Source: an uncultured Clostridium sp. (GTDB lineage: Bacteria > Bacillota_I > Bacilli_A > RF39 > UBA660). From it: a DNA stretch of 64,000 nucleotides. A program made the position numbers and the translations under genes. Position 1 is the stretch's first letter. Each line of letters begins with the position of its first letter. Positions 8,849-56,455 of the stretch are shown here, in pieces. The notes under the pieces were generated by a model that saw nothing but the letters and a program-made list of their open reading frames with translations, had not been told where the DNA came from and did not search any database. The DNA lies in NCBI GenBank assembly GCA_964649575.1, contig CAZYRI010000001.1:5235-69234 (forward strand). Direction: 5' to 3'.

Positions 8849-8994
8849 TAAAATGCCTCCTTTCGTAAATAAAGAGTGGACTACCATGTCCACTCTCCTC
8901 TTGTCAACTGTATTATAGCATAATTAATTATATGTTACAAGAAAAACTTTATTAATTGATATGTTAATTTTTATTAATTTTTATTAATTTTCAA

Positions 8995-9023
8995 TTGAAA
9001 TATATTTTTATATTTGTTAGTAT
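8995..9023 (+). promoter_or_regulatory. sigma-A-type promoter for the AAA+ gene
   Basis: TTGAAA-17-TAGTAT; AAGAGG RBS before ATG 9045; preceded by 3x direct repeat ttaattttta (8965-8994). Confidence 0.5.
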
Positions 9024-9044
9024 AGTGAATTAAGAGGTAATGAT

Positions 9045-10907
9045 ATGAAAAATGAACTTGTTTTTAAGAGCTTAAACAGCGAAACTAAAGAGTATTTACT
9101 TGCTGTATATTCTATAATGGATTATTTAAATAATTGTAATCCTAGTATTCCTGTGACTAATAGTGATGGTGAAACCATTTATGTTTCAATCACTGAAGGA
9201 AATTATATAATTGGTCTTGCTTTTTTCTTAGCCGGTCTATATGTAGATGGACCTACAAAAGATTTTTTTAATTCTAGAGATATTACTTTTGAAAAATGTT
9301 TTAGTTATATTAATAGTGATAATACTAGTGAATTTAAATTAATTGATGATGATTTATTTAATAATGAAGCATTTAGTCTTATTAATTTAGGTAGTTATTT
9401 GGGTACTATTTCTAATCAAATAAAGGAAGACTATTATCTTACTGATAAAGATTTTTCTATTAATGATATTGAAGGTTATCAAATATTTGACTATTCTATG
9501 ATATTTTATACTGATGTAGTTAATGATTTAATGTATGAAATGTTTGGTATTGATGACTTTTTTAAAAGTGAACTATTTGATGATTATCAAGCAACTAGAG
9601 AAGGAATTTATTCTAGGATGGCTAAAGAAAAATATGATGTTGATATATTTGAAGCAAGAGATGAAATCATTTGGGAATTTGATTTTGATAGATTTAAATT
9701 AATATATGATAATGGCTATGCTTATTTGTTTACTCCTGATAAAAGTAATGTTGATGTTAAAGTCTTGGGTGAAGAAAATGAGTCTATTAATATTAATAGT
9801 GTTGAAATATTAAGAATAAATGGTAAAAGTATAGATTTTGATTATTTTGATAGTATTCTTTCATTAAATGATGATGATGTTATTGAACTTACTATACTTG
9901 ATAGTGAAGATAATGAAAGAATTTTTGCTACTAAAAAAGGAGAATTATTTAAAAAAGTGGAAGATATAAAAGAAACTAAAAGAAAAATCAATTTAGATAA
10001 ATATGGTGAAGAATTAACTAAACTTAATTATCTTAGTGATCCTAGTGTTGGTAGAGATGATGATATAAGAAGAATTGAACAAATTTTATTATATCCAGAA
10101 AGAGATAAAAGTATTATTATAACTGGTGAACCTGGTGTTGGTAAAACTGCTCTTGTAAGAGGGCTTGCTTATAGAATCAAAAATGGAAATGTACCATCTA
10201 AACTAAAGGGTATAAGAATATATAGTATTGATAATGCTACTATGGTTGCTGGTACTAAATATGTTGGTATGCTCGAAGAAAAAATGAAAAATATTCTTGA
10301 TGAAGTTAGTGAAGATAAAGATATAATATTGTTTATTGATGAAGTACATCAAATAATATCTGGTGGTGCTACTGAGAATAGTAATAACTCTGTTGCTGAA
10401 ATATTAAAACCATACTTAGATGTTGGAAAAGTTAGAATTATTGGTGCTACTACTACTGAAGATTATATGAACACTATAAGTAGTAATCCTGCTTTTAAAA
10501 CCAGATTTAAAAGAATTGATATAAAAGAACCTACTAATGATACTATGTATACAATTCTTGATAATTTAATTGATACATATAATGAAATTAGTGGTATAGT
10601 TCTTGATCCTGATTACACTAATAGAGCTAATATTATTAAGTCATTGCTTGATGTTACTAAAAAGTCTTGTAGAGATTACAAAGATCCTGCTAATAATCCA
10701 AGACTTGTTATTGATATTTTAAAAGAAGCTTATGCTATTGCAGCAATCAATGACAGAGACGAAGTTACAATTGATGATATTAAGCTTGCAGTTAGTGACG
10801 AAGAAAGAATTTATAAATCTGCTAGAGATAGATATTCTAATATTTATGATAAAGAAACTCAAAAGCCAAAAGGCATTGTTCTTGAATTTAAGCCTAAAAA
10901 ACATTAA
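9045..10907 (+). CDS. Clp/Hsp100-family AAA+ ATPase with a single D1-type nucleotide-binding domain fused to an unrecognised ~320-aa N-terminal domain
   Basis: GEPGVGKTALVRGLAYRI (Walker A, ClpB/ClpC D1 signature), LFIDEVHQI (Walker B), ILKPYLDVGKVRIIGATT (sensor 1), RFKRIDIKEP; no D2 module, no ClpP-docking loop. Confidence 0.75.
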   Translation: MKNELVFKSLNSETKEYLLAVYSIMDYLNNCNPSIPVTNSDGETIYVSITEGNYIIGLAFFLAGLYVDGPTKDFFNSRDITFEKCFSYINSDNTSEFKLIDDDLFNNEAFSLINLGSYLGTISNQIKEDYYLTDKDFSINDIEGYQIFDYSMIFYTDVVNDLMYEMFGIDDFFKSELFDDYQATREGIYSRMAKEKYDVDIFEARDEIIWEFDFDRFKLIYDNGYAYLFTPDKSNVDVKVLGEENESININSVEILRINGKSIDFDYFDSILSLNDDDVIELTILDSEDNERIFATKKGELFKKVEDIKETKRKINLDKYGEELTKLNYLSDPSVGRDDDIRRIEQILLYPERDKSIIITGEPGVGKTALVRGLAYRIKNGNVPSKLKGIRIYSIDNATMVAGTKYVGMLEEKMKNILDEVSEDKDIILFIDEVHQIISGGATENSNNSVAEILKPYLDVGKVRIIGATTTEDYMNTISSNPAFKTRFKRIDIKEPTNDTMYTILDNLIDTYNEISGIVLDPDYTNRANIIKSLLDVTKKSCRDYKDPANNPRLVIDILKEAYAIAAINDRDEVTIDDIKLAVSDEERIYKSARDRYSNIYDKETQKPKGIVLEFKPKKH

Positions 10908-10930
10908 ACAACTATCATAGTTGTTTTTTA
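10907..10930 (+). terminator. rho-independent terminator
   Basis: AACAACT-atcat-AGTTGTT followed by TTTT. Confidence 0.7.
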
Positions 10931-10959
10931 TTGACAAACGGTTGTTTGTTATTTATTAT
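10931..10959 (+). promoter_or_regulatory. consensus promoter of Y-family polymerase gene; probably leaderless transcript
   Basis: TTGACA-17-TATTAT; ATG 10968 lies ~8 nt after -10 with no SD; spacer contains AAACGGTTGTTT (degenerate Cheo-like palindrome). Confidence 0.55.
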
Positions 10960-10967
10960 ATAAATAT

Positions 10968-12209
10968 ATGAATGAAAGAAATATTATAAGTATTGATTTA
11001 AAAAGTTTTTTTGCATCGTGTGAATGTGTCCAAAGAGGACTAGATCCTTATAAAACCCCTCTTGTTGTAGCGGATACTGATAGAGGTGATAAAGCTATGT
11101 CTCTTGCTGTTTCACCTTATCTTAGAAACCAAGGTGTTAAATCTAGATGCAGAGTTTTTGAAATACCCAAAAATCTTAATATAATGTTTGTTAAACCAAG
11201 AATTAAACTATATCAAGAATATAGTAAAAAAGTATTTGATATATATAGAAGTTTTATAAGTGATGAGGATATTCATTTTTATTCTATTGATGAAGTATTT
11301 ATGGATGTTACTGACTATCTAAAATATTATAAAAAAACTGATATTGAGCTTGCATTATTAATTATGAAAACAGTGTATGAAAAAACAGGGCTTACTACTA
11401 CTGCTGGTATTGGTCCAAATATATTACTTGCTAAAATAGCTATGGATGTTGAGGCAAAACATAATAGAAATTGTTTATCTAAATGGACATATAAAGATGT
11501 AGAATCCAAACTTTGGAATATAACTCCTCTTACTAAGATTTGGGGAATTGGAAAAAATACTGAAAAAAAGCTTAATAATTTGGGTATATATAAAGTTGGT
11601 GATATTAATAAATATTCAAGAAATTTTTATATAAAAAGATTTGGTAATGTTATGGGGAATGATATTTTTGATAAAGCTAATGGTATATACTTTCCAACTA
11701 TTAAAGAATTAAATTCAAGAGTTAAAGAAAAATCAATGAGTATGAGTCAAATATTATATAGAGATTATAGTATTGACGAAGCTATACTTATTATTAAAGA
11801 AATGAACGATATGTTAAATGTTCAGCTTAAAGAAAAGAAATTAACCACTAAACTTATTCATTTATCAGTTTCGTATTCAAGAGATTTATATAAAGGATTT
11901 AATGATACGACTTTATTAAATACTGTTGAAGATAACGGTGAAAAGATATTTGATACTCTTAAGTATATGTATTATAAAAATATTGAAGATTTGCCTATTA
12001 GAAAAGTTGGTATTGCCTATTCTAAACTTACTGATAAAGGTGCTACACAGCTTAGTTTATTTGATAAAAATGAAGTACCAACTGATGAATATAATAAAAT
12101 AATTGATAAGATTACTTCTAAATATGGAAACACTTCTATATTAAGAGCTTCTTCCCTTCTTAAATCATCTACAATTAAAAATAGAGAAAGATATAAAAAT
12201 ACTATTTAA
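10968..12209 (+). CDS. Y-family (DinB/UmuC-like) translesion DNA polymerase
   Basis: N-terminal SIDLKSFFASCE...VVADTDRG motif typical of Y-family polymerases; 413 aa. Confidence 0.8.
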   Translation: MNERNIISIDLKSFFASCECVQRGLDPYKTPLVVADTDRGDKAMSLAVSPYLRNQGVKSRCRVFEIPKNLNIMFVKPRIKLYQEYSKKVFDIYRSFISDEDIHFYSIDEVFMDVTDYLKYYKKTDIELALLIMKTVYEKTGLTTTAGIGPNILLAKIAMDVEAKHNRNCLSKWTYKDVESKLWNITPLTKIWGIGKNTEKKLNNLGIYKVGDINKYSRNFYIKRFGNVMGNDIFDKANGIYFPTIKELNSRVKEKSMSMSQILYRDYSIDEAILIIKEMNDMLNVQLKEKKLTTKLIHLSVSYSRDLYKGFNDTTLLNTVEDNGEKIFDTLKYMYYKNIEDLPIRKVGIAYSKLTDKGATQLSLFDKNEVPTDEYNKIIDKITSKYGNTSILRASSLLKSSTIKNRERYKNTI

Positions 12210-13251
12210 TCTTTCTCTTTTCATTTATAACTTTTCTATAATATGGCATAAGACTTATACCATTTTTTAAATTATTTGGTAATTGTGCGGCTATATAATC
12301 TTTCCATATACTAGCACTTACTAAATATACCATTGTATTTGATGTTGTAAAATTCCATTGTATTTCTTTTATTTCATCTAATGCTAATGCACATGTTTTA
12401 GCAGTATTAATAATTTTATCAAATAGTGGTATTTCTATATTATTTAGTTTTTCATTTGTTTCTGGATGTTTCTCATATATATTTTCTTTTTCATCCATAA
12501 AATCATAAGTTGTTTTACCTGTTTTTACATCAATCTTGCTACTTATAGTTTTATCTTTTAAAAACATTTTTATTTCTGCATACAATATATCAATTGTATC
12601 TTTTCTATACACTGTTACTATACTTATAATTGTTAAATTATTTTTATTTATTTTATCTAGTACTCTATTTTGCTTATGAGTTTTTTCCATATAATAAAGT
12701 TTATTATTATTTATTTCATCCAGTATGAATGCTGGACTTCTATAATCTTTTAAGTTAAACATCATAGTTCTTTCTTCATCTGGTGACTCACATCTACATG
12801 TTATTTCTTTTTTATCTTTTACAAAATCTTCATATTCTTTATAACTTATATCTTTTATATTTATAATTTCTCTATTTAAATATTTATCAAATTTAATATT
12901 AAATTTAGTTTTATTATTTAATAGACTTAATGCAGTTTTATCTATTAAATGTTTATTTATATATTCTTTTCTTATTTTACCAACAAATGTATCTCTTTTA
13001 TCTTTTTTAACTGTTTCAAATTTTAATTTTTCATATTCATCAAAAGTAATACTATATTTTATATAACAAACATAAATATCAATTAAAATATTTAAATATG
13101 GTTTATTACTTCTTTTTTTAATTCTTTTAATAGTTTTATTTAAATTTTTTAAATCTTTTTTTAGGTTATCAAAAAATTTCTTTATTGCTTTTTTCATACT
13201 TCTTTGTCCTTTTTTCAACTTTATTATATAGTTTTTTATATTAAATAGCAA
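12202..13251 (-). CDS. hypothetical protein, possibly ATP-grasp-like (sugar-transfer-associated type)
   Basis: 349 aa, K-rich N-terminus, weak resemblance only. Confidence 0.25.
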   Translation of the reverse strand: MLFNIKNYIIKLKKGQRSMKKAIKKFFDNLKKDLKNLNKTIKRIKKRSNKPYLNILIDIYVCYIKYSITFDEYEKLKFETVKKDKRDTFVGKIRKEYINKHLIDKTALSLLNNKTKFNIKFDKYLNREIINIKDISYKEYEDFVKDKKEITCRCESPDEERTMMFNLKDYRSPAFILDEINNNKLYYMEKTHKQNRVLDKINKNNLTIISIVTVYRKDTIDILYAEIKMFLKDKTISSKIDVKTGKTTYDFMDEKENIYEKHPETNEKLNNIEIPLFDKIINTAKTCALALDEIKEIQWNFTTSNTMVYLVSASIWKDYIAAQLPNNLKNGISLMPYYRKVINEKRKIK

Positions 13252-13254
13252 TAA

Positions 13255-14073
13255 TTAGTTTAATAGTTCATTTATTGAAACTATTTTATATCCTTTACTT
13301 TTTATATAATTTATTGTTGAACTTAATTCTGTTAAGTTTTTATTGTTTTCATTTATAAAAAATATTGTACCATTTTGTATATTATTTTTTACATTATTTA
13401 GAAGATTTTCTTTTATTTCAAATACCATATTTATACTATTTAAATTTTTCTTATAACATATATCTTTTATATCATAATTATTTGTTTTAACACAATAAAA
13501 TTCATCATGTAGTATTTTAATAAAATTATTTAATTCTTCTTTACTATTACCTTTGAATAAGATATTACTGTGATTTGTTATATTATCTATTTCATTAACT
13601 AAGTTATTATAATTAAATAATAAATTTAATTCAGTATCTTTATTTTGAGCTACTCCTATCATACTTTTATAATATTTAGTATTATTAACATTTATAACTA
13701 AGCTTATATTCTTTTTATAATCATTTCCTTTTATTATGTATTTATCTTTATTATTTTCTTTATTTAATATACATTTATTCTCTTTATATTCAATTAATTC
13801 TTTTTTAAAGCCTATTCCTTTCATATTTGAATAACTTTTATTTTTATCTATTTTTAAACCACTAAGTCCAAGAACTATACCAAATTCATTAATATTACCT
13901 TCTCTACATTCATAATCTATTTTTTTTGCATAATCATTTATTGATACTAAAATTGTGTCATTATATTTAGATATTTCTATTACTTTGTCTGTATAATAAA
14001 AACTAAATAATACAAAAAAAATAACTATTATATTTTTTAAATATTGTTTCATATTAAAATATATAATGGTCAT
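13255..14073 (-). CDS. membrane-anchored polysaccharide deacetylase (NodB)-like protein, divergent
   Basis: N-terminal TM; C-terminal FFINEN...YIKSKGYKIVSINELL resembles NodB-domain C-terminus (PdaA/PdaB-like). Confidence 0.35.
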   Translation of the reverse strand: MTIIYFNMKQYLKNIIVIFFVLFSFYYTDKVIEISKYNDTILVSINDYAKKIDYECREGNINEFGIVLGLSGLKIDKNKSYSNMKGIGFKKELIEYKENKCILNKENNKDKYIIKGNDYKKNISLVINVNNTKYYKSMIGVAQNKDTELNLLFNYNNLVNEIDNITNHSNILFKGNSKEELNNFIKILHDEFYCVKTNNYDIKDICYKKNLNSINMVFEIKENLLNNVKNNIQNGTIFFINENNKNLTELSSTINYIKSKGYKIVSINELLN

Positions 14074-14080
14074 TAATTAT

Positions 14081-15208
14081 TTATTCATATATTTTAAATC
14101 TTCTTTTTAATGATAATGATGATTCTTCTATCTTAGGATATGCTATTGTACCATTGATAAAATCATCATAATTTATTCCTAAGCCTTCAATAGATGACTT
14201 AAATGTTCTTTCTTTTCTTGAGGAAATAAAGTCGTAGAATAATTTCATAAATTCTTTGTAGCCCATATTTTCTCTTAAATATTGTAAATGCAATGCTGTA
14301 TAAATTCCTATACCATATATCATTTCTTCCCTAATTTTACTTCTTTTTTCATAATTTTCGGCATTTAATATTACTGATGGTTCTCTTTGGCAAAAAAAAG
14401 CTTTATCTGTTAAACATATTGCTGGAAAAGTATCATCCATGTATGTATATCTGTCATTTTTTAATATATTTGCTCCATCTTTATGTATTCCTTGTTCAAT
14501 TAAATAATCATAAAACTCTAATTCAAAGTATGATGATGGGACTTCTATAAAATAATCTTCAAATTCTCTTAATTTCTTTTGTTGAGGATATATAAATGAT
14601 TCCCTATCATATGCATGGCCAAATTCATGAACTAAAGATGAAAGAGATAAATCATTATAATTTCTATGTTGCATCACTATATATCCACTTTTAAGTTTTT
14701 TACTACCTATATGCATAGCTGTAGAGTTTTCTTCACCTATTTTATAGTTATAACCCATCACTATTCTATCTTCTTCCATATATTTTTTTATTAGTTTATA
14801 CATATCATTTCCATATCTACTAAAGAATGATAATAATATATCAGTAAAATCTTTCTCACTATATCCGCCTATTAATTTATAGAATGGAAGTGTTGGATAG
14901 TCTATTTTAATTAAATATTTATTTAGTTTATTAAATAATTCAAATAAATCATCATAATTATCTTTCATGAATGTATTAAAACCATTTATTTCTTGACAAG
15001 ACATTTTTTCAAATAAAATTTGTGTTTTATATGGATTTTCAAATACAGAAAATGGATCAAAAGAAAAACCAAGTAGATCAATTGCTAGTTTATCAAGCAC
15101 ATAAAATCCAATATAATCAAATGTTATATCTGATTCTTTTTGATGTTTTTTATAATACTCTTTTAACTTTTTTAAATCGCTAATTAATCTATCTTGATTT
15201 GATTGCAT
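14081..15208 (-). CDS. HExxH zinc metallopeptidase-like protein
   Basis: HEFGHAYD motif (M3/PepF-like) in a 375-aa protein. Confidence 0.4.
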   Translation of the reverse strand: MQSNQDRLISDLKKLKEYYKKHQKESDITFDYIGFYVLDKLAIDLLGFSFDPFSVFENPYKTQILFEKMSCQEINGFNTFMKDNYDDLFELFNKLNKYLIKIDYPTLPFYKLIGGYSEKDFTDILLSFFSRYGNDMYKLIKKYMEEDRIVMGYNYKIGEENSTAMHIGSKKLKSGYIVMQHRNYNDLSLSSLVHEFGHAYDRESFIYPQQKKLREFEDYFIEVPSSYFELEFYDYLIEQGIHKDGANILKNDRYTYMDDTFPAICLTDKAFFCQREPSVILNAENYEKRSKIREEMIYGIGIYTALHLQYLRENMGYKEFMKLFYDFISSRKERTFKSSIEGLGINYDDFINGTIAYPKIEESSLSLKRRFKIYE

Positions 15209-15229: not shown

Positions 15230-16504
15230 TTATATTCTTTCTTTTCCACCCATATATGGTCTTAGAACTTTTGGTATTGTTACAGTTCCATCTTCGTTAT
15301 AATTGTTTTCTAGTAATGCTATTAAAGCTCTTGTTGATGCTAAAACTGTATTATTTAAAGTATGTGGATAATAATTTTCTTTTTCTCCTTTTACTCTAAT
15401 ACCAAGTCTTCTTGCTTGTGCATCTCCAAGTGTTGAACAACTACCTACTTCAAAATATTTTTGTTGTCTTGGGCTCCATGCTTCAATATCACATGACTTA
15501 ACTTTTAAATCAGCTAGATCTCCACTACAACATTCTAATGTTCTAACAGGTATATCTAGGCTTCTAAATAATTCTACTGTGTAACTCCACATTTTATTAT
15601 ACCAATCCATTGATTCTTCTGGATGACATAATACTATCATTTCTTGCTTTTCAAATTGATGTACTCTATATATTCCTCTTTCTTCTATACCATGGGCACC
15701 AACTTCTTTTCTAAAACAAGGACTATATGATGTCATTGTAATTGGTAAACTATCTTCTTTAATCATTTCACCTTTGAATTTACCAATCATAGAGTGTTCA
15801 CTTGTACCAATTAAGTATAAATCTTCACCTTCTATTTTATACATCATAGCATCCATTTCTGAAAATGACATAACTCCATTTACTACACTACTTCTAATCA
15901 TAAATGGTGGAATACAATAGGTAAATCCTTTTTCTATCATAAAATCTCTTGCATAAGATAACATTGCTGAGCTAAGTCTAGCAGCATCTCCCATTAAATA
16001 ATAAAAACCATTTCCACTAGTTCTACCAGATGCTTCCTTATCAAGTCCATTTTTAGATTCTAAAATATCAGCATGATATGGAATTTCATATTCAGGAACT
16101 ATTGGTTCACCAAATTTTTCTATTTCAACATTTTCTTTATCATCTTTTCCAATTGGTACAGATTCATCTATGATATTAGGAATCACCATCATTATTTTAT
16201 TTATTTTTTCTGATAATTCAGTTTCTTTTAATTCTAAGCTTTCTATTTCGCTTTGCATTGATGAAACTTCTTCTTTTAATTTATTTGCTTCATCAATTTC
16301 TTTATTTCTCATAAGTTCACCTATTTTAGAACTTATTTTATTTTTATCTCCTCTTAGTGTATCTGCTTTTACTCTCGCAGTTCTATATTCATTATCTAGT
16401 TCATATACTTCATCCACTAGAGGTAATTTTTCATCTTGAAATTTTTTCTTAATATTTTCTTTTACTAAGTCTTTATTTTCTCTTATAAGTTTAATATCTA
16501 TCAT
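15230..16504 (-). CDS. serS: seryl-tRNA synthetase
   Basis: N-terminal coiled coil + class II core, 424 aa. Confidence 0.95.
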   Translation of the reverse strand: MIDIKLIRENKDLVKENIKKKFQDEKLPLVDEVYELDNEYRTARVKADTLRGDKNKISSKIGELMRNKEIDEANKLKEEVSSMQSEIESLELKETELSEKINKIMMVIPNIIDESVPIGKDDKENVEIEKFGEPIVPEYEIPYHADILESKNGLDKEASGRTSGNGFYYLMGDAARLSSAMLSYARDFMIEKGFTYCIPPFMIRSSVVNGVMSFSEMDAMMYKIEGEDLYLIGTSEHSMIGKFKGEMIKEDSLPITMTSYSPCFRKEVGAHGIEERGIYRVHQFEKQEMIVLCHPEESMDWYNKMWSYTVELFRSLDIPVRTLECCSGDLADLKVKSCDIEAWSPRQQKYFEVGSCSTLGDAQARRLGIRVKGEKENYYPHTLNNTVLASTRALIALLENNYNEDGTVTIPKVLRPYMGGKERI

Positions 16505-27514: not shown

Positions 27515-27614
27515 ACATAAAGAACAAATTAATTTTAACATAAGGAAAATGCTTTTTCAAGTGTGATATTTATAAAATTATAAAAATGTTATATAATATA
27601 GTTAGGTGATTATA

Positions 27615-28952
27615 ATGTGGAGATTTATTGTAATACTTACTTGTAAGATCGTTAATAAATTAAGTAAATTAACTGGTCATGCTGGTAGTGTTATTGGAGG
27701 AAGAATAGCAAGAAAGCTTGATAAGAATATTTTAAAGAAAATAAAATTGCCAAAATATGTTATTGGTATTACTGGTTCTAGTGGTAAAAGTTCCTCTACT
27801 GAACTTATGTATAATATACTTACTAAAAATAATTATAAGGTTATTTATAATAAAGAAGGAAGTAATACTATTAATGGAATAGCTTCTTTAATACTAAATA
27901 ATTCTAGTTTATTTGGTAAACTTAAAGCTGATATATTACTTATGGAGTTAGATGAACAATTTATGAAATATATTTTTGAATATATTATCCCTACTCATTT
28001 AATGGTTACTAATATAACAAGAGATCAACCTCCTAGAAATGCTCATCCTGAATATATATATAATGCTATTAAGAATGCTATACCTAATGGTGTAAATCTT
28101 ATTATAAATGTAGATGATCCTTTTGTTAATAGACTTAGAATTAATCATAAGGGAGCTATTATAACTTATGGTATAGATAAAAATGATTATTCAAGAAAAA
28201 GTAATATTAATAATTTAGATGCAGCTTATTGTCCAATATGTCATTCTAAATTAGAATATGATTATTATCAATATGGTCATATCGGTTCATATAATTGCCC
28301 TAAATATCATTTTAATCGTGGTAATCCAGATTACTTTGCTACTGATATTGATGTAGATAATAAGAAGATTAAAATTAATGATTGTGTTGTTAATCTACCT
28401 TCTAATTTTTTATACACTGTTTATTTTGTAACTGGTTGTTATGCTCTTAGTAAGTCAATAGGCTTAAGTGATGATGATATCTTAAAAGCTATTAATGACG
28501 AAAATATTAAAACTAAAAGACTTGAAATATATGATTTTGATAATAGGAAATGGCAAATGCTTGTAAGTAAAAACGAAAACAATTTAAGTTATAAGCAATC
28601 TCTTGATTATATATTACATCAAGATGGTGATAAAACTATTATACTTGGATTTGATTCTTCTAGTCGTAGATATACTGAAAATGATATATCCTGGATATGG
28701 GACATTGATTTTGAAAGTTTGAATGATGCTTCTATTAAAAATGTTGTTCTAATTGGTAAGTTCTGTTATGATATGATGGTTAGAATGGAATATGCTGGTA
28801 TTAATAAAGATAAAATATTACTTGTAAGTGATATTAGTAAACTTAGTAATATATTAAAAAATAAAACAACTGGTAAGATATTCTCCATGGTTTGTTTTGA
28901 TAAAGAAATAGAACTTAAAAAGATTATAAAGGAGGAAAATAATAATGATTAA
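27615..28952 (+). CDS. murT: lipid II isoglutaminyl synthase, Mur-ligase-like subunit MurT
   Basis: GITGSSGKSS P-loop, Cys4 ribbon CPICHS...CPKYH, C-terminal DUF1727-like region; AGGTGAT RBS. Confidence 0.85.
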   Translation: MWRFIVILTCKIVNKLSKLTGHAGSVIGGRIARKLDKNILKKIKLPKYVIGITGSSGKSSSTELMYNILTKNNYKVIYNKEGSNTINGIASLILNNSSLFGKLKADILLMELDEQFMKYIFEYIIPTHLMVTNITRDQPPRNAHPEYIYNAIKNAIPNGVNLIINVDDPFVNRLRINHKGAIITYGIDKNDYSRKSNINNLDAAYCPICHSKLEYDYYQYGHIGSYNCPKYHFNRGNPDYFATDIDVDNKKIKINDCVVNLPSNFLYTVYFVTGCYALSKSIGLSDDDILKAINDENIKTKRLEIYDFDNRKWQMLVSKNENNLSYKQSLDYILHQDGDKTIILGFDSSSRRYTENDISWIWDIDFESLNDASIKNVVLIGKFCYDMMVRMEYAGINKDKILLVSDISKLSNILKNKTTGKIFSMVCFDKEIELKKIIKEENNND

Positions 28953-55074: not shown

Positions 55075-56370
55075 TTATCCTATTCGGAAGCCTGGAGCCA
55101 CACCGTTCCTATCGTAAGCATAGGAGCTATATTGGAAGTAGCCATAATAGTGTACAGCTAAGAAACCGAGATTATAAGTAGAACTGGCGGAGCGGAGCCA
55201 CCATCTCGAAGCACTAGTGCCGTTCAACTTTACAGCACCACTATAGTTAGAAGTTGTTACTCCTATTTTTTTATAATAATCTAATTGTCTTGTTGTTCCT
55301 ATTGAAGTGTCATATGATTTATAACTATTAGTTTCAGTATCTTCCCATACTTCTTCTGGTGAAAACAAATATAATTTATCTATGCTTACAAAGTTTCCAT
55401 CTTCTCGTTCCTCATTTTCAACTATCATGTTTCCATAACTTGATACTACTGTTGTATCTATTATTCCATTCTTTAATTCTGTTGGTAGTGCATTATATAT
55501 TTCATTATTTACAAATGTTCTCATTGTTGTATTTGGCCATCCACCTACATTATATCCATAATTATAAGTTGTTCCATTATATTCTCCTGCTGGGTTCATT
55601 TGATGTGATGTTATTATGTCTGCAAATTCAAGCACGAATCCACATGCTGTTTGTGAAAAACCAGCTGTATTACATTCATCTGGTGTAGATGTATTTGCTA
55701 TTCTTAAGGTATGTGTCCCATATTCTCCTAAGTCTACTTCTTTTGTATCTCCAACTGTATAATCACTTCCATTACCTGCTTTTACATTTGCTACAATATC
55801 TGACCATGAATCTGTTGCGAAGTTAGGTTTTTTATATTCTTCTATACCTAACATTCCATTAAACTTTTTACCTTGATTATAGTTTTGTATTTCTCCTGTT
55901 TCTTTAAATGTAAATGTGAAAGTATATTTATGTGTTATTCCACTTTCTATTGTTATATTTGATTTTACTCTATTTGGTCCAATTACTGTTTCTTCTATTC
56001 CTTCACATGTTCCTTCTTCTACATCTCCATTTAATCTTTTACATGTTGCACTTATTAACATTTCATCATTTATTATTTCATTTGTTAATTCTTGCCAAAT
56101 GATGTTATATTCAGTTTCTAATGTACCAGTGTTTTCTACTGTTACTTCTTTTGTTATTGATCCCCCTGGTTTAATATTTTCCATTACTATTTCTTTTGAA
56201 TCAGTATATGTTAGTTTTAATGTTCCTGCTTCTACTACCATATCTTTACTATCATTATTTCCACTTATACTTGAACTAAAGTATGCATAAGAAAATCCTA
56301 TTACTGCTAGTAATAAAAATGCTATTATTGTTCCATATAATATTCTTTTATCTTTCATATATTCACTCAT
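55075..56370 (-). CDS. secreted TasA/camelysin (M73)-like protein with SipW-type signal peptide and extra C-terminal domain
   Basis: AYFSS signal-peptide motif after TM, N-domain aligns to TasA (AGTLKL..., ENIKPGGSITKEVTVENTG); 431 aa. Confidence 0.65.
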   Translation of the reverse strand: MSEYMKDKRILYGTIIAFLLLAVIGFSYAYFSSSISGNNDSKDMVVEAGTLKLTYTDSKEIVMENIKPGGSITKEVTVENTGTLETEYNIIWQELTNEIINDEMLISATCKRLNGDVEEGTCEGIEETVIGPNRVKSNITIESGITHKYTFTFTFKETGEIQNYNQGKKFNGMLGIEEYKKPNFATDSWSDIVANVKAGNGSDYTVGDTKEVDLGEYGTHTLRIANTSTPDECNTAGFSQTACGFVLEFADIITSHQMNPAGEYNGTTYNYGYNVGGWPNTTMRTFVNNEIYNALPTELKNGIIDTTVVSSYGNMIVENEEREDGNFVSIDKLYLFSPEEVWEDTETNSYKSYDTSIGTTRQLDYYKKIGVTTSNYSGAVKLNGTSASRWWLRSASSTYNLGFLAVHYYGYFQYSSYAYDRNGVAPGFRIG

Positions 56371-56400: not shown

Positions 56401-56455
56401 CCCCCCCGACAAGCGAACAAGTGTTCTTTTTATAGATATTCATTATAGATATTCA
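56401..56455 (-). promoter_or_regulatory. promoter region of TasA-like gene: Cheo/LexA-type box, G7 tract, 13-bp tandem repeat
   Basis: cGAACAAGTGTTCt at 56414-56426; CCCCCCC (G7 on coding strand) 56401-56407 between TTGTCG and TATTAT (15-bp spacing); tTATAGATATTCA x2 at 56430-56455. Confidence 0.45.

Follow-up and report, generated by a model that had tools for sequence, protein, structure and literature searches.

A lone Clp D1-type AAA+ protein with an unrecognised N-terminal region, encoded beside a UvrX/YqjW-type translesion polymerase in low-GC gut bacteria

We analysed a stretch of 64,000 nucleotides from the genome of an uncultured Clostridium sp. (assembly GCA_964649575.1, contig CAZYRI010000001.1; hereafter the window) and focused on two neighbouring plus-strand genes: gene 1, which encodes an AAA+ ATPase, and gene 2, which encodes a Y-family DNA polymerase (Table 1). 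On balance we consider it somewhat probable that these are two vertically inherited and separately transcribed chromosomal genes, that the first specifies a lineage-restricted single-ring remodeller or unfoldase of the Clp D1 type and the second an SOS-type translesion polymerase, and that their adjacency was inherited but is required by neither. In textbook accounts, Hsp100/Clp unfoldases are machines of the two-ring or D2 type. Judged from its sequence, the gene 1 product is of the Clp D1-ring type and yet falls outside the class I Clp proteins, as it lacks a D2 ring, a Clp_N domain, an M-domain and a ClpP-docking loop.

The D1 assignment follows from comparisons with families and structures. 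Gene 1 matched the Pfam AAA family, and the NCBIfam models of ClpA, ClpB and ClpV matched it over their D1 portion only, the matches ending where D1 ends; positions 154-433 (of 734) of the ClpA model aligned contiguously to residues 298-587. The best matches among solved structures were the D1 domains of ClpB and ClpC (E ~1e-44, residues 302-520), these alignments also stopping with D1, and identity to the D1 of ClpA, ClpB and ClpC was 33-40% over the large and small subdomains. Like these class I proteins, gene 1 has the pre-D1 linker motif LDKYGxDLT, Walker A and B, a KY-x-G pore loop, sensor-1 and an arginine finger, the stretch RFKRIDIKEP quoted in the original prediction being present as well; the Walker, pore-loop, sensor-1 and arginine-finger motifs are essentially invariant across the family. 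Unlike them, it holds a single Walker A motif instead of two modules (D1 plus D2) and has in addition a PDZ-like domain and, at the C-terminus, a conserved tail. A search with the E. coli ClpB D2 gave no match anywhere in the window. An M-domain is absent, since the alignment to ClpA D1 is contiguous and has no coiled-coil insert, and so is the ClpP-docking IGF/L loop, because this loop resides in D2. The original description of gene 1 as a D1-only Clp/Hsp100-type protein without D2 or ClpP loop is thereby borne out. A D2 partner encoded nearby was considered and rejected: the AAA_2 protein found near the genes in relatives is ClpX-like, not a Clp D2, and has no counterpart in the window.

The N-terminal region of about 320 residues had been called acidic, aromatic-rich and novel, and the composition of residues 1-315 agrees (20.3% Asp+Glu, 15.3% Phe+Trp+Tyr). 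No Pfam match was obtained for the region with a threshold as loose as E ≤ 10, nor in 11 family members, and this includes the Clp_N (nothing at E ≤ 10), PDZ and YolD families. Alignment of residues 1-200 to the N-domains of E. coli ClpA and ClpB with hhalign fell in the expected register but was non-significant (E 0.09, probability <1%), and a degenerate Clp_N repeat that had been suspected by eye in these residues (HLLLALL...G(V/I)) was not supported. AlphaFold models built on the family alignments were confident, with a predicted local distance difference test score (pLDDT) of 85 for residues 1-320 and of 93 for residues 1-200, the latter with a predicted TM-score of 0.90; a Foldseek search of the PDB with the model of residues 1-200 yielded no match reaching E<0.7, so that the structure prediction, too, argues for a non-standard N-domain. 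Residues 201-300 gave local Foldseek matches to the PDZ domains of GRASP55/65, CtpA, Prc, DegQ and YlbL, all of them with weak E-values (probability up to 0.98, E 0.008-0.75, target-normalised TM 0.2-0.4), and we tentatively regard this segment as PDZ-like by fold, without sequence support. According to the models, the fast-evolving N-region is an orphan helical domain followed by a PDZ-like beta domain. A PDZ-like module ahead of a processing engine likewise occurs in PDZ-bearing AAA+/protease factors (Lon-like YlbL/DdcP, Prc/CtpA); unlike these, gene 1 has no protease domain and its PDZ assignment consists of fold hints. In one family member (P0135, L016:4632-6545; loci of relatives are denoted by L numbers) the PDZ-like module apparently occurs in two tandem copies; the frame of this gene breaks inside the AAA domain, possibly by a frameshift or an assembly error.

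At its other end the ATPase carries a short motif, [IV][IL]xFx[PL] followed by basic residues, which is kept in every family member, with or without a polymerase neighbour, and which, we infer, resembles the hexapeptides that bind the beta clamp. Taken together, the intact D1 machinery suggests that the protein has its origin in the D1 ring of Hsp100 proteins of the ClpA/B/C type and most likely assembles as a hexamer that pulls on or remodels its clients at the expense of ATP; these clients would be selected by the N-region and perhaps also by the [IV][IL]xF tail. Because both the D2 ring and the ClpP-docking loop are missing, its role would be to remodel or unfold proteins, not to serve as part of a protease.

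The family is small and restricted. A profile search of 1.84 billion representative proteins with the N-region returned 16 clusters at 50% identity, a word-index search with the N-domain returned fragments only, and a limited literature search found no description of proteins combining a lone D1 with an orphan N-region. All full-length members measure 600-653 residues and share one architecture. Their hosts are low-GC gut and rumen bacteria, the genome matches being metagenome-assembled genomes (MAGs) from the gut that are labelled Mycoplasmatota or uncultured Bacilli. Between the window and two sister clades, ATPase identity amounts to 65-67% and 45-47% and polymerase identity to 92-94% and 69-70%, respectively; by this measure evolution is much faster in the ATPase than in the polymerase, and the part of the ATPase that changes fastest is the beta domain (identity falling to 14-45%).

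Gene 2 specifies a UmuC-like polymerase, as had been proposed. It has the Pfam domains IMS, IMS_HHH and IMS_C, with the catalytic core and the little finger, and the catalytic acidic residues Asp10 and Asp108-Glu109; its best NCBIfam match was PRK03103 (233 bits, below the cutoff of 381 bits). With the motif definitions of PMC6511836 we recognised a beta-clamp motif, a stretch resembling the RecA N-terminal (RecA-NT) motif and a conserved C-terminal tail, all features of the YqjW/UvrX group (PMC6511836). The nearest annotated relatives, found in phage and plasmid collections at 33-40% identity, were SPbeta UvrX/YolE and the "damage repair" polymerases of Enterococcus, Priestia and Carnobacterium plasmids; in a homologue search with the polymerase, the matches listed came from the same clades only, at identities of at least 69%. 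The protein is predicted to be a catalytically competent member of the UvrX/YqjW group that would be recruited through its QLSLF clamp motif.

The two genes appear to be transcribed separately. The hairpin that directly follows the gene 1 stop codon (-6.7 kcal/mol, z = -3.6) was missed by a scan for consensus terminators because its stem has too few G-C pairs, and an equivalent hairpin with T-run is found 3' of gene 1 in other clades. Each gene is preceded by a promoter-like site of its own, in line with the original prediction: the arrangement at gene 1 also precedes the orthologues in L004, L008 and L010, and the site at gene 2 is identical in the clades at 90% and 66% identity. Promoter-like sites as a class were no commoner than expected (31 found against 35.8 in shuffled sequence), and the gene 2 promoter is therefore supported by its conservation in relatives and not by the scan. 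In every clade, hairpin and promoter divide the two genes.

The start of gene 2 had been described as lacking a Shine-Dalgarno (SD) sequence. With the catalytic Asp at residue 10, translation can start only at the ATG at position 10968, which lies 8 nt after the -10 box, a spacing that is constant in three sub-clades. The 25 nt before it contain no G-rich SD, and most well-defined genes of the window carry one of the AGGAGG type, so that this part of the original description was upheld. The layout is compatible with a leaderless mRNA, which would imply leaderless translation. It is confined to the clade of the window and its sister at 66% identity, other clades having a leader of ~16 nt with an SD, and by this distribution it is a derived feature of one clade.

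Within the promoter spacer of gene 2 lies a perfect palindrome that resembles the LexA-binding Cheo box (CGAAC-N4-GTTCG; CAAAC-N4-GTTTG in the window) and is larger than originally noted. Its arms are fixed within the clade of the window, and the central 4 nt vary (GGTT, TTGT, TTAC). One match of this kind within 64 kb has no significance on its own; the element gains it from conservation across clades. All 12 aligned regions preceding the polymerase gene carry a 16-nt Cheo-like element, which was present in every relative examined, and in all other clades the homologous counterpart of the palindrome at this position reads ACGAAA-N4-GTT(T/C)GT. There, an extended -10 box is followed by the leader TACGAAA(A/G)GGTGTTTGT-ATG, and the element also contains the SD. 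The elements of L013 and L103, which read CGAAAGGCTGTTCG and CGAAAGGATGTTCG, are each one mismatch away from the Cheo box, and this comparison supports the Cheo-like nature that had been proposed for the palindrome. As members of the YqjW/UvrX group have been predicted or shown to be controlled by LexA (PMC6511836), the polymerase is probably repressed through this LexA-box-like operator. In the clade of the window the operator would have moved into the promoter spacer and the polymerase mRNA would have lost its SD leader. A canonical GAAC-N4-GTTC site elsewhere in the window (56415-56426, GAACAAGTGTTC) was rejected as an SOS site: it is located ~45 nt upstream of a non-repair gene (Peptidase_M73/DUF6273, 55075-56370, minus strand) and is probably due to chance, since 14 of 100 shuffled sequences gave at least one match.

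To what extent the two genes belong together was assessed by genomic context look-ups and in 80 metagenome loci. ATPase and polymerase are adjacent in ~10 sequence-distinct lineages, down to 35% ATPase identity and with differing flanks (rimP, a C39_2-like peptidase, Bax1-I, RelA or a thymidine-phosphorylase region upstream). In a rough neighbour-joining tree the polymerase-linked ATPases are basal and scattered, which suggests that adjacency is ancestral and was lost in independent events; it would accordingly go back to the ancestor shared by the ATPase family. Relatives at 47-90% identity retain the slot adjoining rimP-nusA-infB, and three states of it occur: most loci hold both genes, nine hold only the ATPase and one holds only the polymerase. 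Where the ATPase is alone, the next gene is either the convergent ATP-grasp gene (L041, L043, L044) or a Zn-dependent phospholipase-C-like gene (L039, L040, L046-L049), and these ATPases retain all motifs, the N-region and the C-terminal tail. The polymerase of L103, 72% identical to that of the window, occupies the corresponding rimP...ATP-grasp...serS slot without a trace of the ATPase. In six loci of the clade at 66% identity a reverse-strand DUF3800 gene (232 residues) separates the two genes. The flanks that recur around the pair (C39_2-like peptidase, ATP-grasp, ClpX-like, RelA) are consistent with synteny by descent. The original prediction had offered a stress or mutagenesis module as one explanation and had proposed to check whether the genes co-occur: widespread adjacency speaks for it, and the separate transcription units, the DUF3800 insertions and the loci that hold either gene without the other speak against it. 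A joint mutagenesis module is not established by these data, and a functional link is possible. Since neither gene requires the adjacency, the main role of the ATPase is probably independent of the polymerase.

Some observations weigh against such independence and against the proposed control of the polymerase. Adjacency survives in the deepest branches of the tree despite changed upstream genes, which may mean selection for linkage. In SPbeta, yolD sits directly upstream of the polymerase gene, a position that is held here by the ATPase gene. A YolD-type gene adjoins the YqjW/UvrX polymerase in 204 of 207 genomes (PMC6511836), and with SPbeta YolD and a plasmid homologue as queries, tblastn and motif searches revealed no YolD-like open reading frame or arm motif in the window or in any fetched locus. 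Finally, neither lexA nor recA was found in the window.

The alternative that fares best, which we nevertheless judge rather unlikely, is that the ATPase is a dedicated partner of the polymerase, either in place of the missing YolD/UmuD-type subunit or as an extractor that, tethered to the clamp, would load, activate or remove the polymerase at stalled forks; its PDZ-like N-region or its [IV][IL]xF tail would then bind the polymerase tail or the beta clamp. Besides the ancestral adjacency and the occupation of the yolD position, with no YolD-like gene nearby, this idea draws on the RecA-NT-like motif and the strongly conserved tail that the polymerase has kept, the tail being the predicted accessory-subunit site in the YqjW/UvrX group (PMC6511836), on the finding that accessory subunits of this polymerase type can be replaced by unrelated domains (PMC12926913), and on the apparent resemblance of the ATPase tail to clamp-binding peptides. 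The locus is indeed reminiscent of the putative UvrX/YqjW (PolY2)-YolD mutasome (PMC6511836, PMC12926913), with which it shares the polymerase subfamily, the clamp motif, the RecA-NT-like motif, the tail, a LexA-box-like operator and a gene directly upstream of the polymerase. It differs in that this upstream gene encodes an AAA+ protein of 620 residues (YolD has ~110), has a terminator and a promoter of its own, and can be absent, as can the polymerase. The ATPase has no counterpart of the N-terminal YolD arm motif (DRGxxKW..LPEH), and both a YolD-like domain or arm inside it and a small YolD gene near the polymerase were rejected as candidates because the searches were empty. Further arguments against a dedicated partnership are that the operator is found on the polymerase gene only, that a DUF3800 gene could be inserted between the two, and that the N-region and the C-terminal motif are kept in the nine loci without polymerase, next to one locus where the polymerase persists without the ATPase; moreover, conserved adjacency is weak evidence for partnership because the phyletic range is narrow. 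The most elaborate version, in which the ATPase is tethered to the clamp by its tail, recognises the polymerase with its PDZ-like N-region, replaces YolD/UmuD, and activates the polymerase or strips it from the clamp at the expense of ATP, is in our estimation improbable; it would be a bacterial analogue of the p97/Cdc48-dependent removal of translesion polymerases in eukaryotes.

Weaker still than a link with the polymerase, and in our view very improbable, is a link of the ATPase with the ATP-grasp ligase (in relatives also with the ClpX-like ATPase) in peptide tagging or protein turnover, the polymerase merely having been inserted there. In the window and five other clades the pair has the ATP-grasp gene as its convergent neighbour, and this gene directly follows the ATPase in the three loci named above; a ClpX-like gene follows in L008, L010, L035, L037, L038 and L042 and comes directly after the polymerase in L018. 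The ATP-grasp gene adjoins the polymerase even where the ATPase is missing (L103), however, and is absent from the L017/L018 clade and the clade linked to phospholipase C; being convergent, it cannot form an operon with the ATPase, and the window holds no ClpX-like gene.

UmuC-like genes commonly travel on Gram-positive mobile elements. That the block is a mobile-element remnant, as was also suggested originally, be it of a phage, plasmid or integrative and conjugative element, or else a defence island, is hardly credible: the mobile-element origin of the closest annotated polymerase relatives and weak PADLOC matches to generic AAA models, which are limited to the P-loop region, stand against a G+C content of both genes (25.9% and 25.5%) equal to that of the window (25.8%), the absence of integrase genes, tRNA and flanking repeats at the block, a chromosomal slot that is conserved in relatives, and the lack of any N-domain homologue among 50,697 phage records and 72,556 records of plasmids, viral contigs giving generic AAA matches only.

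Around the pair, the window offers the following context. The rimP-nusA-ylxR-infB block precedes it on the minus strand, as predicted; serS (15230-16504), which had been taken as the border on the other side, is not an immediate neighbour, being separated from the pair by three minus-strand genes. The first of these, the ATP-grasp gene, has a lower G+C content (19%), and the trio is syntenic in relatives. A membrane-anchored Peptidase_C39_2-like protein (360-412 residues), often with a partner of ~119 residues, is repeatedly encoded next to the slot, upstream and divergently, whether the slot holds both genes, the ATPase only or the polymerase only; it is missing there in the window. No Rfam elements were found in the intergenic regions. 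Elsewhere, the window encodes a MurT-like Mur ligase (27606-28952); peptidoglycan synthesis is therefore probable in this organism, despite the Mycoplasmatota label of one close MAG.

Table 1. Coordinates of the features at the locus and of neighbouring genes in related loci (residue numbers refer to the encoded protein; L numbers denote loci of relatives)
Feature	Position	Strand	Remarks
Promoter-like site of gene 1, TTGAAA-17 nt-TAGTAT	8995-9023	+	scan; TG upstream of the -10 box
Shine-Dalgarno of gene 1, AAGAGGT	9032-9038	+	
Gene 1, single-ring Clp-D1-type AAA+ protein, 620 residues	9045-10907	+	Pfam, NCBIfam and PDB matches; full-length homologues (35-90% identity) of the same architecture
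Helical domain with inserted beta-hairpin, residues 1-200	9045-9644	+	AlphaFold model; no detectable relative
Beta-rich, PDZ-like domain, residues 201-300	9645-9944	+	fold hint only; model pLDDT ~75-90
Clp D1 AAA+ module, residues 316-600	9990-10844	+	NCBIfam, solved-structure and family alignments
Walker A, GEPGVGKT, residues 361-368	10125-10148	+	
Pore loop, GTKYVG	10251-10268	+	
Walker B, IDEVH within residues 429-435	10329-10349	+	
Sensor-1, GATT, residues 467-470	10443-10454	+	
Arginine finger within KTRFKR	10497-10514	+	
C-terminal motif of gene 1, IVLEFKP	10875-10895	+	matches the family consensus
Terminator-like hairpin with T-run	10906-10932	+	RNA fold; 9-bp stem, 3-nt loop
Promoter-like site of gene 2, TTGACA (10931-10936)-17 nt-TATTAT (10954-10959)	10931-10959	+	11/12 matches, best in the region
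Operator-like palindrome, ACAAAC-GGTT-GTTTGT	10934-10949	.	Cheo/LexA-box-like
Gene 2, UvrX/YqjW-type (UmuC-like) Y-family polymerase, 413 residues	10968-12209	+	IMS, IMS_HHH and IMS_C domains (Pfam)
Beta-clamp motif, QLSLF, residues 361-365	12048-12062	+	
RecA-NT-like stretch, IDKITSKYGNTSILRAS	12087-12152	+	likeness judged by inspection only
Conserved polymerase tail, LLxxSTIKxREKFKNxI	12153-12206	+	conserved in all orthologues
ATP-grasp (ATPgrasp_ST) gene	12202-13251	-	convergent; 8-bp overlap with the 3' end of gene 2; recurrent syntenic neighbour of either gene
272-residue protein, no family	13255-14073	-	
375-residue protein, no Pfam match	14081-15208	-	HEFGH zinc-peptidase-like motif
Zn-dependent phospholipase-C-like (PF00882) genes, ~300 residues	L039:6994-7890, L046:5966-6862, L048:2916-3821, L049:3363-4268		same strand as the ATPase
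DUF3800 insertion	L026 (7063-7761), L027, L029, L031, L032, L034		absent from sister loci L028, L030, L033
Peptidase_C39_2-like genes	L008:4807-5889, L041:1082-2302, L103:3238-4476		examples
ClpX-like genes	L008:10290-11786, L010:10294-11790, L018:6305-7861, L042:8198-9691		

Two other kinds of Clp-related protein were met in the relatives. The ClpX-like ATPase near the pair (497-518 residues; best NCBIfam match ClpX, below its cutoff) retains a GIGF stretch, its zinc-finger N-domain being replaced by ~160 unrelated residues without a cysteine cluster that show no similarity to the N-domain of the gene 1 family. A separate family (loci L050-L102) consists of standalone D1-only Clp-like proteins of 302-350 residues without N-domain or D2 (e.g. 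L055:4977-5966 and L070:4986-5933), a few of which carry long C-terminal extensions (among them L062, 1035 residues, and L067, 1088 residues); their genes lie in co-directional chromosomal arrays by glmS, a CDF transporter gene, lspA, dnaE and a polyprenyl synthase gene, on metagenome contigs of 24-33% G+C. Like gene 1, they have a single D1 starting from a YGE(N/D)LT linker, low-GC hosts and a chromosomal context; unlike gene 1, to which they are 32-40% identical, they have no N-region, no [IV][IL]xF tail and no polymerase neighbour.

On the side of the polymerase the locus is ordinary, the only notable features being the clade-specific move of the LexA-like operator into the promoter and the lost ribosome-binding leader. 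Control of the polymerase by the ATPase would, if true, be a principle new to translesion synthesis in bacteria; an obligatory link is not favoured by these data. The wider meaning lies with the ATPase: a natural D1-only family, in which D1 is fused to orphan helical and PDZ-like domains, shows D1 to be capable of persisting as an engine in its own right, and this family would, together with the second and even smaller standalone family, provide minimal systems for studying D1.

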